A DNA stretch of 64,000 nt, from the NCBI GenBank assembly GCA_026026165.1, contig JAPEUD010000041.1:62001-126000 (forward strand). The letters run 5' to 3'. Positions within the stretch are counted from its first letter, which is position 1, and each line of letters opens with the position of its first letter. Below, one piece after another: positions 39,905 through 46,545 of this stretch. Under the pieces are notes generated by a model. It was not told the DNA's origin. It did no database searches and saw nothing but the letters and a program-made list of their open reading frames with translations. A program made the translations under genes and the position numbers. Origin of the DNA: Sarea resinae (taxonomy: Eukaryota).

Positions 39905-40966
39905 ATGTCTTCGATACCAGATTCCGAGCTCCAGACCGCCTCCGCCCGCTTTCTGGTGGCACACATCCCCCCCAACCTTGTCCGCCCACACAGCGCGGCC
40001 AATGTCAAATTCAACGTAATTGCCAGATATCGCATTGCCGTGCATCATGCATCACAGTCGGAGGACGCCCACGCCATCAAAGCAATCGCCTCTATTTCCC
40101 GTCGCTTTCTCAAGGACATGAAGTATATCTTCACTTCCGAAATGGATGCTTCAGCCGACGAGTGCGTCGCAGCCCTCGAAGACGGGATAGCGGTCTATTA
40201 CTCTCGCATGGCGAAGTGGGACTCCTACCTGGCGCACGTGCATATCAAGATCTCCGAGCGGAGACTGAGCGCCGACAAGGTGCCGTGGGATGAGCTTCAT
40301 GCTGCATATCAGGATTCGTATGCCCGCGCGTATGTCCACTCCAAACAACTGAAGATCACAGACGAGAATAGGGAGAAAGTGGCTGAGCTCATGCAGACCC
40401 TAGGCACCAGTGCCGGCATCGACCTCGTCGGGCTTTCTTCAGGTGAGACCGAGGATCTTGCCATGTTGGCAATGCACTGCATCATGAAGCACAAGGACGT
40501 CATCCAGTGCAACCGCATCGCCAAGTACGAGCTCTCGACGAACATGGACGCCAACCTCACCGAGTCGCGGCTCCTAAACCAGCAAATCGAAGACTGCCTG
40601 CCACGCGAGACAGCGGCGGTCGAGAAGGAGGCCAAGGCCCAGCGGCAGCTCGAGCACGAGGAGCATTATATCAACCAAGTGCGAGCCGATGCCCAGGCCG
40701 CGCTGGCTCGCGCCGATGAGTCCGCCCTGCTGATGCATAATTTCCAGGTCGGTGCCGCTCAGCAGAGTCTCAGGAGGGCCATCCGCCGCGTCAGGAAGGC
40801 CAGGGACCACGTGGATGAGGTGAGGACGCAGTATATCCAGATGATGAATTTGTTCGATGACTTGGAGACAGACTTTTACGATCTGGATGAAGAGGCCGCG
40901 CTCCTGCATGCACGCCACAAGGAGCTGGCGGAGAAGGGCCCGGCTATGTTTCTCGGTCTTTCGTAG
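39905..40966 (+). CDS. Intronless 353-aa protein of unknown function with a predicted C-terminal coiled coil; paralog of 45535-46545
   Basis: Long ATG-initiated ORF downstream of a TATA box; colinear similarity to the 45535 ORF (e.g. KVPWD.L..A..D.YARA.V). Confidence 0.88.
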   Translation: MSSIPDSELQTASARFLVAHIPPNLVRPHSAANVKFNVIARYRIAVHHASQSEDAHAIKAIASISRRFLKDMKYIFTSEMDASADECVAALEDGIAVYYSRMAKWDSYLAHVHIKISERRLSADKVPWDELHAAYQDSYARAYVHSKQLKITDENREKVAELMQTLGTSAGIDLVGLSSGETEDLAMLAMHCIMKHKDVIQCNRIAKYELSTNMDANLTESRLLNQQIEDCLPRETAAVEKEAKAQRQLEHEEHYINQVRADAQAALARADESALLMHNFQVGAAQQSLRRAIRRVRKARDHVDEVRTQYIQMMNLFDDLETDFYDLDEEAALLHARHKELAEKGPAMFLGLS

Positions 40967-42285
40967 ATGTATGTGTAAGTGTCTGCCCTAGAAAGCAAGT
41001 CGGACTGTGCGAGTCGCTGGCGACCTATAAGGGGGGAGGGGACCTGATCAGCAGTTTAGTACCTTCTAAAGCCACGTCTGTGATGAGTCGAAGTAGTGAG
41101 TCGGTCTATACAAATAGAAGTCTTTACTGACATCAAGAGAACGAACATCTCCAACGCTCTTTTGGCATTGAATATATTTTCTACTATGATATTACAATCA
41201 GCCTTCTAGAATCGTCGCTGTGTATATACTGAAAAGACAACGGAAGGGAAGAGAGGAAGAAAAGCTATTAGCTCTATATTCCTACTTCCTCTAGTGTAGT
41301 GAGAATAGCACCTACCATGCTGTATCATACATAAGAATCACTATCAGAAAAGGACTAGATTGTGCTAGAAAGCGTAGACAAGGGCTAGTAACAGGTGTGA
41401 GGCACAACCCGCAAAGGAGAGCGTCATAGAAGGGTTATAAAAATAGCGTCACAGAAGGACGACACGGACATAGACGCTGACAGTCATAGACGTTTTCCGT
41501 GCTAGAACCAGAAACCCTAGAAAGGGGCCCGAGAAATTAGTTCCCTTTGATCATCCGTGGAGTAAAGGGGTTAACTATAGACACAAGCAGCTGAGTCCAG
41601 CTCGGCCACTCGCGGAGGTCAATTCAAAGTGTTAATTCTAGCGCAGACAAGAATCTTCCAACGTATAACCGCGTCAATAGCCAGGCCAAGCAGGTGATCA
41701 GGGCAGTGTCTTATCTCGTGAGTTGCTAGTCTATTTCTGCGAAGACGATACCCTTCATAGAGAGAAGACGTGCTCGAAACAGCGACAGCTATCATAGATT
41801 TCGTGTTCCGTTACCCGAAAAATGGTGGACAAAGGAAAGGGTATCTCTAATAACTTCATGCAGAGGTTCTCGCATTGGTTGGTGCCGTGTGCTCTATCTA
41901 CCTCTGACGGATGAGTTCATAGATACTCTGCAATGACCCCGAGCCTTGCGAATATTTGGTGAGAGACTGCAATGCGTATAGCATTTGGGCCGTATCTTCC
42001 TTTTCTTGGGGCGGGGGAGGATTTCTCCACCGTTGAGAACCTTGTGACGTCGACAGGGAAAGCAGAACAGCTTCGAAGACGACAGCAACGCTTCTCCCAC
42101 CATGGCGGCGGCGACGTCTATACTGACTTGCAACGCATTCCGAAGACAAGAAGTCTTCTATGCCCCTCTGTCTAAAGATCCAATCAATTCACCAAACGTG
42201 CAGCGAAGCTGAACTCATCCGCCGCCGTCCAGCCACATCTTGCTTGCTGGGTTATACTGCTCTAGGTCTCACAGAGCCTCAACAA

Positions 42286-42376
42286 GCCGGGGTAGCTCAA
42301 TCGGTAGAGCGTGTGGCTCTTAAAAATCATCAGATTTGATACCTCAAGGTCGCGGGTTCGAGCCCCGCCTTCGGCT
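42286..42376 (+). tRNA. tRNA-Lys(CUU) with an 18-nt intron (42323-42340)
   Basis: Acceptor stem GCCGGGG/CTTCGGC; D-arm TAGCTCAATCGGTAGAGC; anticodon CTT at 42319-42321; T-arm GCGGGTTCGAGCCCCGC; T-runs downstream. Confidence 0.95.
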
Positions 42377-44509: not shown

Positions 44510-44620
44510 CGAAAGCCAGAGACGTTCGACGAAAAATGTCCGAAATTCACTAGAGATTCGGGAGGGGGGGCATCGTTGGAAGCCGCGCCTGGCGCTCTCG
44601 AAATCCAGAGACGTTCGACG
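44510..44620 (+). repeat. 22-bp direct repeat CGAAA(G/T)CCAGAGACGTTCGACG, two copies (44510-44531, 44599-44620)
   Basis: 21/22 identity read directly from the sequence. Confidence 0.9.
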
Positions 44621-45534
44621 CTTTTTGCCCGACATTTTCTGCGGGGTGTGCTAAGTATGGCAGTAGGGGGTTGAACATCAGAGCCTACCTGAGACGCGGA
44701 GGTAAAGAGCTAGGCCGGCGGCGAAAACTTCATTACTGCAGCCCACGAAAGCGTCTACTGAAAGTCAACTTGACGGACCAGGACAAAAAATCCGCCCTGG
44801 GTGGCAAAGAAAGCCCGCAGCGTCAGCGGTGAGCGGATCTCCGATAGCGGTATAAGGAGGTGAGGGTCAACACTACCTTAGATAGAAGATCATGGACTCG
44901 TCACCTGTAGATAATGACGCGGCGAGTATAGTCATTTCGCTGTAAAAGGATTCATTGAGCCTCCTGAGTCTTGACTGGATGACGCAGGCCCCATCGAACT
45001 CGTGAACCTTTATCTCCCGAAATCTCAAGCCCCAAGGGGAGTAAGAAGTTGTCATAAGCCGACTTCACCAGCCATGACGATGCGCGTGAATAGTATAGCC
45101 AGTAAGGGTGCATCTTGAGACATCGCTCATCGCCACAGTATGTACGGTCGACTCACCGGATCAAGAGCCGGATCTATAATCGTATAAATAGAAAAGACGA
45201 CGCAAAGATGCAGAAGATCGATCTGCGAAGGCAATTAGGAAAAGGAGCCAGTCATAGACATGGCCCGCCGATCCGGCTTGCTGATGCCGCGCAGGCAAAT
45301 CACATTACAAGAGTCATTCCTTTATGGTTTGCAAGGACAGCGAAGAAATGGAAGATGATGATTCGAAGCCGATGGGACGGTCTTTCATATTTTGGAGCAG
45401 CTGCACACCCGTATATAAGAGTGAGGGATCATCTTACCTTCTACAACCCGTCATCCACGAAAGCAAGACATTTGAAGCCTGGCCTTGCCGAACGAAATTG
45501 CCTTATCTAACCAGGAGATTGACCAAGGACCAGA

Positions 45535-46545
45535 ATGTCGAGTGACCCGTGCTTGACTTCAATCTGTTTCGCCGAATGCCGGATCCCAGAGGGGCTCGCA
45601 GATGGCGACAGCGATTTCAGGAACTCGGTCCTCTTTAGGCTGCGGATCCTCCCCAGACTGAGATCTGGAGACATAGCGGCCACAGCACAGACCTGCGAGG
45701 AGCATATGCGGGACATGGGCTGGACCTATGATGAAGAAACCAACTCGTTTGCCGATAAGGCGATCGAGGACCTTGAAAATGGCCTAGACTATAAGTACAA
45801 GGTCATGGCCAGTCAAGATATGCAGATCGCGATTGTACACAGCAAGATGCAAATCTTAGGATTTCCTAGCCACAAGGTTCCATGGGACTGCCTAGAACAA
45901 GCAGGGATGGACGCATATGCGCGAGCATTTGTCAATTGGAAGGGTCTTTCCCTCACAAGTGAGAACACCGAGCGTGTCTATGCGATAGTGAAGAGAGCAG
46001 CTGATCGGGAACTGCTATTGGCGGAAATCAGAGCTGACGAGGAAGATGAGACTATGCTTGCAATCAACTATATCTCGGAGCGCGGCGAGGAAATATGCGT
46101 TAACCGGGACTTGCAACATGAGCTGACAAGACAATTTCTATCGAATTCAATTATCGTGGAGACCACAAGACACGTAATCAATGCAACAGCAGAAGAGGCA
46201 GAGTTTGCCAATTCCAAATGCAAAAGATTCAGCGAGGAGTTAGACGAGCAGCGTCATTTTCTAGAAGGGATTAAGAAAGACGTGAAGGATGCCGAGAAGG
46301 AAGAAGCTGAGCTTCGGCAGACGATCCTTGACACGCAGCTAGCGTTCGCAAAGAAAGATCTTACGAGATTGATAGTAGCAAGACGGAGAGAGTTGAAGAG
46401 GGTCCGGAAACTAGCACGCTGTCAAAAGACTGCATTGCTAGAATTAGATAATATTGAGTCAGAGAACGCAGCGATATTAGGGTCGCTCGAGGATTTGGAC
46501 GCGCACAGGCAGAGACTGATTAGTGAGATCACTCTGAGTGACTAA
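45535..46545 (+). CDS. Intronless 336-aa protein of unknown function with a predicted C-terminal coiled coil; paralog of 39905-40966
   Basis: Long ATG ORF with TATATAAG at ~45412; colinear similarity to the 39905 ORF over the full length. Confidence 0.87.
   Translation: MSSDPCLTSICFAECRIPEGLADGDSDFRNSVLFRLRILPRLRSGDIAATAQTCEEHMRDMGWTYDEETNSFADKAIEDLENGLDYKYKVMASQDMQIAIVHSKMQILGFPSHKVPWDCLEQAGMDAYARAFVNWKGLSLTSENTERVYAIVKRAADRELLLAEIRADEEDETMLAINYISERGEEICVNRDLQHELTRQFLSNSIIVETTRHVINATAEEAEFANSKCKRFSEELDEQRHFLEGIKKDVKDAEKEEAELRQTILDTQLAFAKKDLTRLIVARRRELKRVRKLARCQKTALLELDNIESENAAILGSLEDLDAHRQRLISEITLSD

Follow-up and report, generated by a model that had tools for sequence, protein, structure and literature searches.

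The window analysed here, a 64,000-nucleotide stretch of Sarea resinae contig JAPEUD010000041.1 (positions 62,001 to 126,000 of the forward strand; coordinates below count from the first letter of the window), carries two intronless open reading frames (ORFs) that form a pair of deeply diverged paralogs. ORF1 (P0001) encodes 353 aa at positions 39905..40966 and ORF2 (P0002) 336 aa at positions 45535..46545, stop codons included, and each is represented in the protein database by an entry of identical length. The two ORFs lie on the plus strand, share MSS as their first residues and are separated by 4568 bp. These values verify an earlier reading of the bare letters (hereafter the sequence-only reading), which had described two intact same-strand frames of 353 and 336 aa with MSS starts, about 4.6 kb apart.

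Gene status and age of the pair

The ATG of each ORF is preceded by an in-frame stop codon, located 2 codons upstream in ORF1 and 5 codons upstream in ORF2. A TATA-like element (TATATAAAG) is found on the plus strand at 39806-39814, 99 bp 5' of the ORF1 ATG, and another (TATATAAG), also on the plus strand, at 45412-45419, 123 bp 5' of the ORF2 ATG. With no intervening ATG in either case, both ORFs start at the first ATG 3' of their respective TATA-like element. Codon statistics were calculated with the neighbouring housekeeping ORFs as reference. ORF1 showed a GC content at third codon positions (GC3) of 0.73 and a codon adaptation index (CAI) of 0.80 in frame, compared to 0.65/0.67 out of frame; for ORF2, GC3 was 0.56 and CAI 0.68 in frame, compared to 0.63/0.67 out of frame (neighbouring genes' range 0.69-0.84). 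The codon usage of both ORFs is native-like and resembles that of the neighbouring genes, with ORF2 being weaker in this respect than ORF1.

BLASTP aligned the two whole proteins with 89 bits (E=2e-24; 84/305 residues identical, 28%) in a colinear manner from residue 1 to about residue 298, in line with the earlier description of colinear paralogs at around a quarter identity. The sequence blocks quoted for the pair in that description also align as they were written. This similarity is not due to the coiled coil, because the N-terminal parts alone (205 aa of ORF1 and 192 aa of ORF2) aligned at E=7e-23 with 31% identity over 189 aa, whereas the C-terminal helices alone reached E=0.005. The relationship had been proposed with the reservation that it might lose significance outside the coiled coil, and the N-terminal value leaves the claim of a pair standing.

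Across 322 aligned codons, nucleotide identity amounted to 0.44 at position 1, 0.51 at position 2 and 0.32 at position 3. Where the two proteins share a degenerate residue, the same codon was used in 30 of 86 cases, compared to 32.6 expected at saturation, and the Nei-Gojobori method (NG86) gave a nonsynonymous divergence (dN) of 0.93 and a saturated synonymous divergence (dS) of 3.1. With synonymous sites at saturation and codon position 2 conserved best, the duplication is evidently old and both copies have been retained under protein-level constraint; the sequence-only reading had spoken of an old or fast-evolving duplication maintained by selection. The same pattern, together with the persistence of protein-level similarity, indicates that ORF1 and ORF2 are real protein-coding genes and not chance ORFs. 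A tblastn search of the 64-kb window revealed no third copy, and no DNA-level repeat joining the flanks of ORF1 and ORF2 was found.

Predicted architecture and search for relatives

In order to gain insights into the architecture of the proteins, AlphaFold (AF2) models were computed in one run per protein, with the paralog as the sole alignment partner. The mean predicted local distance difference test (pLDDT) values were 59.4 and 61.0, and both models show the same order of elements, namely about nine short helices followed by one continuous helix of ~145 residues. The N-terminal helical domain, delimited by BLASTP of the N-terminal parts and by the AF2 models (helices of low pLDDT in ORF1), comprises residues 16-204 of ORF1 (39950..40516, plus strand) and residues 12-191 of ORF2 (45568..46107, plus strand). 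It contains the best-conserved stretch of the pair, a KVPWD...YARA...TxEN core with a blockwise identity of 0.43-0.47 over aligned codons 91-150. The single long predicted helix extends over residues 204-347 of ORF1 (40514..40945, plus strand; pLDDT up to 84 in the helix) and residues 191-335 of ORF2 (46105..46539, plus strand; pLDDT up to 92).

Of the long heptad-like helical region noted before, the long helix is borne out by prediction in both proteins, whereas clean heptads appear only in the last ~45-55 residues, where the two paralogs share one register. Within the last ~55 residues of ORF1, 7-8 of 8 heptad a/d positions are hydrophobic, and at the C-terminal end of ORF2 up to 6 of 8. 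Columns that are hydrophobic in both paralogs (300, 303, 317, 320, 327/328, 331, 334 and 341) follow a spacing of 3/4/7/14, and the only two indels between the long helices each measure exactly 7 residues. Over the entire long helix, a 3.5-residue periodicity was no better than in shuffled sequences, with fractions of 0.22 and 0.89 of the shuffles reaching the observed power.

Directly N-terminal to this heptad zone, both paralogs carry a basic motif. It reads L-R-R-x3-R-V-R-K-A in ORF1 (residues 289-299, 40769..40801, plus strand; invariant columns L289, R290, R291, R295, V296, R297, K298 and A299) and R-R-x3-R-V-R-K in ORF2 (residues 284-292, 46384..46410, plus strand; invariant columns R284, R285, R289, V290, R291 and K292). 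The proteins have net charges of -10 (ORF1) and -18 (ORF2), and no membrane segment was predicted in either, the maximum 19-residue hydropathy being 1.04 and 0.65, respectively.

Comparison of the models with known structures returned generic similarity. Foldseek yielded 0 matches at E<=0.001 for the ORF1 model against the PDB, and VIA-align of the ORF2 model found generic long coiled coils only, aligned to residues 188-336 with Z<=8.0, so that the N-terminal domain was barely probed. The list included cohesin, tropomyosin, Ndc80-Nuf2, SYCP3 and dozens of other coiled coils with Z values of 6.4-8.0, which is background for helical models. With fast-evolving structural coiled coils, such as synaptonemal-complex and kinetochore components, the pair shares a long helix, poor conservation and small size, a likeness that is generic only. 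A prediction of the complex of ORF1 and ORF2, run without controls, scored 0.00, a value that carries no weight for or against a complex.

The earlier assignment of the pair to no known family is corroborated by Pfam, PDB sequences and an exhaustive profile search, all of which lacked a true relative. No Pfam family scored above its cut-off for the whole ORF1 or ORF2 proteins. A Peptidase_C10 match was rejected because it remained below the cut-off (21.4 bits compared to 26), concerned ORF1 only and is at odds with the all-helical models and with the lack of any Cys invariant between the paralogs. Among PDB sequences, only Rop was returned (E 0.28-0.62). A word-indexed search of 5.8 billion protein clusters recovered for each ORF nothing but itself; because it missed the known paralog from both ORFs, this search was insufficiently sensitive. 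The exhaustive HMMER search with a two-sequence profile against 1,835,955,588 representatives gave three proteins at E<=0.001, namely both queries and a 917-aa tandem-repeat protein. The latter matched via nine short 'VKVTDEND' stretches only and was discarded as spurious.

Further searches were also negative. None of 64 metagenome and none of 33 viral contig pattern matches was confirmed as a relative of ORF1/ORF2. We collected 65 fungal loci from metagenome contigs (750,171 bp) via an alignment of relatives of Sld7; an Sld7-like gene adjoins ORF1. Against these loci, tblastn with ORF1/ORF2 gave 0 matches at E<=1e-3 (best E 1.7), and a profile search of 10,732 six-frame ORF pieces reached a best E of 8.5. 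Control genes were found in the same loci: the proteasome subunit of the window matched in 8 loci, LOG in 7, CLPTM1 in 5, Sec22 in 5 and Iki1 in 19 (18 at E<=1e-5). In the ESM Atlas, the best feature score of 0.80 corresponds to the chance level, all structure rows had TM<0.5, and the N-terminal part alone gave no usable match to the named clusters. A search of sequencing runs with a stretch of the window returned one DNA run, probably the source, almost no words in two other runs of the same study and no RNA run. The literature found on the Sarea resinae genome consists of taxonomy and ecology papers, none of which describe the ORF1/ORF2 genes, and the papers retrieved on CTTTGTT in connection with HMG factors and mating concerned animals only.

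How far these negatives reach can be judged from the adjacent Sld7-like gene, which retrieved 159 relatives at E<=0.001 from the same protein database. Its nearest other protein is 44% identical and the remainder 30-42%, originating from lichen-forming and other ascomycete classes. The database is therefore rich in fungi and holds no close relative of Sarea resinae. At the divergence that separates the two paralogs (89 bits), a relative would still have been detected; more distant ones would not. By these searches, which did not cover eukaryotic genome collections at the DNA level, the ORF1/ORF2 family is without detectable homolog outside its lineage. Because the lineage is thinly sampled, as the 44% identity of the nearest Sld7 relative illustrates, this orphan status is only mildly surprising.

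Promoter motifs and genomic neighbourhood

The sequence-only reading had assigned the pair a promoter with sites of the high-mobility group (HMG) type. Upstream of ORF1, nine CTTTG/CAAAG cores including five CTTTGTT are clustered at 39408..39873, counting both strands. In the 580 bp between the Sld7 stop codon and the ORF1 ATG, 9 CTTTG compare to 1.6-1.9 expected and 5 CTTTGTT to 0.11-0.29 expected under local Markov-1 and Markov-2 models, and 0 of 20,000 simulations with either model reached five CTTTGTT. The segment 39442-39873 alone contains 5 of the 16 CTTTGTT and 7 of the 36 ACAAAG sites of the 64-kb window. The HMG domain of Neurospora crassa mat a-1 is reported to bind a CTTTG core (PMC3691137, PMC3036917), and Schizosaccharomyces pombe Ste11 is reported to bind the TR box TTCTTTGTTY (PMC3416868). 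The latter motif occurs upstream of ORF1 once exactly (39493-39502) and twice with one mismatch (39550-39559 and 39619-39628), all on the plus strand and with spacings of 57 and 69 bp. Only two exact copies exist in the window; the second (43578-43587) is located 40 bp downstream of a 5S rRNA gene in the spacer between ORF1 and ORF2.

The motif excess and the match to the mat a-1 core and the TR box thus give the proposed HMG-site promoter a real statistical basis in the case of ORF1. It does not extend to ORF2, whose upstream 600 bp contain 0 CTTTGTT and 1 CTTTG. With nine CTTTG cores and three copies of the TR box, one exact and two nearly so, the ORF1 upstream region resembles the target promoters of HMG-box mating regulators.

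The pair is situated in a housekeeping neighbourhood that includes CLPTM1, LOG, a proteasome subunit, Sld7, Sec22, Iki1 and GH63. The Sld7-like gene upstream of ORF1 (37657-39324, plus strand) encodes Sld7_N and Sld7_C domains according to Pfam. Its product is listed with 559 aa in the database, compared to a 465-aa ATG-to-stop ORF in the window, so that the gene must begin further upstream, with one or more additional exons or an earlier start codon. Between the Sld7-like and the Iki1-like gene, comparison with the Sld7-anchored fungal loci delimits a 12.5-kb block (39325..51865, no strand assigned) that contains ORF1, a tRNA gene, a 5S rRNA gene, ORF2, Sec22, a 403-codon ORF of no family and an ASXH-domain gene. 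Both genes are present in 18 of the fungal loci. In 15 of these, Iki1 follows downstream of Sld7 at a distance of 186-2366 bp; one further locus shows a distance of 5.3 kb, and in two Iki1 lies 4.6-5.0 kb upstream. The corresponding gap in the window measures 12,542 bp. This difference from the close arrangement in related fungi indicates that the 12.5-kb block arose in this lineage, by rearrangement of, or insertion into, an Sld7-Iki1 junction that was tight in the ancestor.

A Sec22-like SNARE gene (46947-47486, minus strand) is located next to ORF2. In one group of the related fungal loci (L020, L021, L033, L046, L058), Sec22 adjoins CLPTM1 at the opposite side of the Sld7 neighbourhood, and the gene has therefore been relocated in the Sarea lineage. 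The 403-codon ORF (48483-49694, plus strand) has no Pfam family and no match in the 65 fungal loci, which makes it a further lineage-restricted candidate.

The spacer between ORF1 and ORF2 has unremarkable indices of repeat-induced point mutation (RIP) and no RIP signature. None of 10 spacer ORFs of 84-134 aa belongs to a Pfam family, and no recognisable coding gene was found there. It holds a tRNA gene with a ~20-nt insert after the anticodon loop (42286-42376, plus strand; Rfam 52.3 bits), which ARAGORN left unnamed; reading the loop CUCUUAA directly gives the anticodon CUU (Lys). A full-length dispersed 5S rRNA gene follows at 43419-43538 (plus strand; Rfam 80.7 bits). A 38-nt direct repeat (44510-44547 and 44599-44636, 79% identical, 89 bp apart) is located in the part of the spacer 5' of ORF2.

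Favoured interpretation and alternatives

We favour the reading, to which we give an even chance, that ORF1 and ORF2 are genuine genes which go back to an ancient duplication and whose family can be detected in the Sarea lineage alone, with a putative helical-adaptor mechanism and putative HMG regulation. Each protein would be soluble, acidic and all-alpha, consisting of a ~190-residue N-terminal helical domain with a conserved core and a subsequent ~145-residue helix. The most likely mechanism would be oligomerisation, probably dimerisation, via the leucine-zipper-like heptad segment at the C-terminus. The RRxxxRVRK patch could act as a nuclear-targeting or as a nucleic-acid or partner-contact element, and the N-terminal domain as a specific interaction module, which would make the proteins adaptors or scaffolds rather than enzymes. 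By analogy with known HMG-box targets, ORF1 would probably be driven by a factor of the MAT/Ste11 type and hence be switched on during sexual development. ORF2 would have diverged in regulation, in the sense that the duplicates are subfunctionalised. A sexual-cycle role is a fair guess, and for ORF1 only.

Several observations weigh against this reading. The AF2 models are of low confidence, with the best-conserved ORF1 block (residues 134-208) at pLDDT <50, the heptad regularity is restricted to the C-terminal end of the long helix, and the role given to the basic patch, which has no match to basic leucine zipper (bZIP) profiles, is a guess. Regarding regulation, ORF2 lacks the motif cluster, and the TR box stems from work on fission yeast, which is distant from the Sarea lineage. 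In addition, a second cluster with three CTTTGTT and another ACAAAG core (~10856-11090, plus strand; CTTTGTT cluster at 10858-11071) precedes an ORF of the DUF3602 family (11104-11811). As this gene is unrelated, the motif may belong to a general factor and not to a mating factor; the second cluster suggests that the motif marks a regulon in the Sarea resinae genome. In both respects, the ORF2 promoter without sites and the similar cluster before the DUF3602 gene, the locus is unlike the target promoters of HMG-box mating regulators. As to lineage restriction, the 18 loci with both Sld7 and Iki1 amount to about eight independent comparisons, many of the 65 loci being one species from several samples, and the term 'lineage-specific' may partly reflect missing genomes in a thinly sampled lineage.

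It can also be considered that the pair belongs to an older and possibly well-known family whose helical or coiled-coil members evolve fast, such as components of the kinetochore, spindle pole or meiotic chromosome axis, and that its sequence has drifted out of reach of a two-sequence profile. Homology-detection failure has been reported to account for many lineage-specific genes (PMC7660931). In the present case, even Sld7, a replication gene, reaches no more than 30-44% identity with its relatives, the paralogs themselves are down to 28% identity, and the word-indexed search recovered the known paralog from neither ORF. Nevertheless, the exhaustive search would have returned a relative at paralog-level divergence as significant and did not, and conservation is strongest in the globular N-terminal domain instead of a low-complexity coil. 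We regard this explanation as unlikely, yet as a serious rival. We consider it improbable that the pair represents a new family, which would have arisen or been thoroughly reshaped in the Sarea lineage, of nuclear, zipper-dimerising proteins in a mating or HMG-box regulon that would form a set of hetero- or homodimers of the sexual stage, for example as meiotic chromosome or karyogamy components. The chance is smaller that the proteins are a non-canonical basic-zipper DNA-binding pair, in which RRxxxRVRK contacts DNA, the heptads dimerise and the products serve as lineage-specific transcription regulators. An invariant basic patch directly N-terminal to a C-terminal heptad segment of shared register is indeed what links them to bZIP proteins. 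The basic region of bZIP proteins is marked by a conserved Asn before the zipper, and the patch is without Asn in either paralog. Moreover, no bZIP profile matched the whole proteins at E<=1 or the C-terminal 78-80 residues at E<=10 (HMMER filters can drop very weak matches), both proteins are strongly acidic overall, and ~280 residues of other helical sequence precede the patch.

That one or both ORFs are silent relics which have remained open by chance appears very unlikely to us. ORF2 would be the candidate, in view of its weaker codon bias and its promoter without the motif cluster; however, both frames are open over 336-353 codons despite saturated synonymous sites, the copies are colinear at both ends, and both retain a TATA-like element with a first-ATG start. 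Least probable of all is a selfish or recognition module, in which the genes would act as a poison/antidote spore killer or in allorecognition (het). In favour of such a module, the two paralogs are linked, diverged and without a known family, and one of them has an HMG-type cluster; in addition, a response to regulators of reproduction is reported for lineage-specific genes of Neurospora (PMC10684091). ORF1/ORF2 share with the genes described there the lack of homologs outside the lineage and a possible link to the control of reproduction. According to the same report, the Neurospora genes are clustered close to telomeres, together with HET-domain genes, whereas ORF1/ORF2 are an old, constrained duplicate amid housekeeping genes and not in a repeat-rich region, with a spacer whose RIP indices are inconspicuous. 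The saturated synonymous sites argue for a long-lived pair and not for a recent driver, no HET, HeLo or NACHT domain was detected by Pfam at E<=1, and membrane segments are lacking. The exhaustive profile search, which gave no true relative of any kind, likewise showed no sequence relation to described spore-killer genes.

The three roles that the sequence-only reading had put forward, a meiotic heterodimer, a spore killer and an allorecognition pair, derive solely from the motif cluster in the ORF1 promoter. Among them, the spore-killer and allorecognition roles found no support and are unlikely for a pair that is this old, lies among housekeeping genes and lacks any relevant domain.

On present evidence, the favoured reading adds one more lineage-restricted helical family in a thinly sampled fungus, which merits annotation and would not surprise a specialist. 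The Sld7-Iki1 junction split by the 12.5-kb block would offer a dated landmark for timing the arrival of the genes. If the family is indeed confined to the lineage and a mating-type HMG factor switches it on, the pair would illustrate how a new gene joins the sexual programme of a hardly studied class of ascomycetes.

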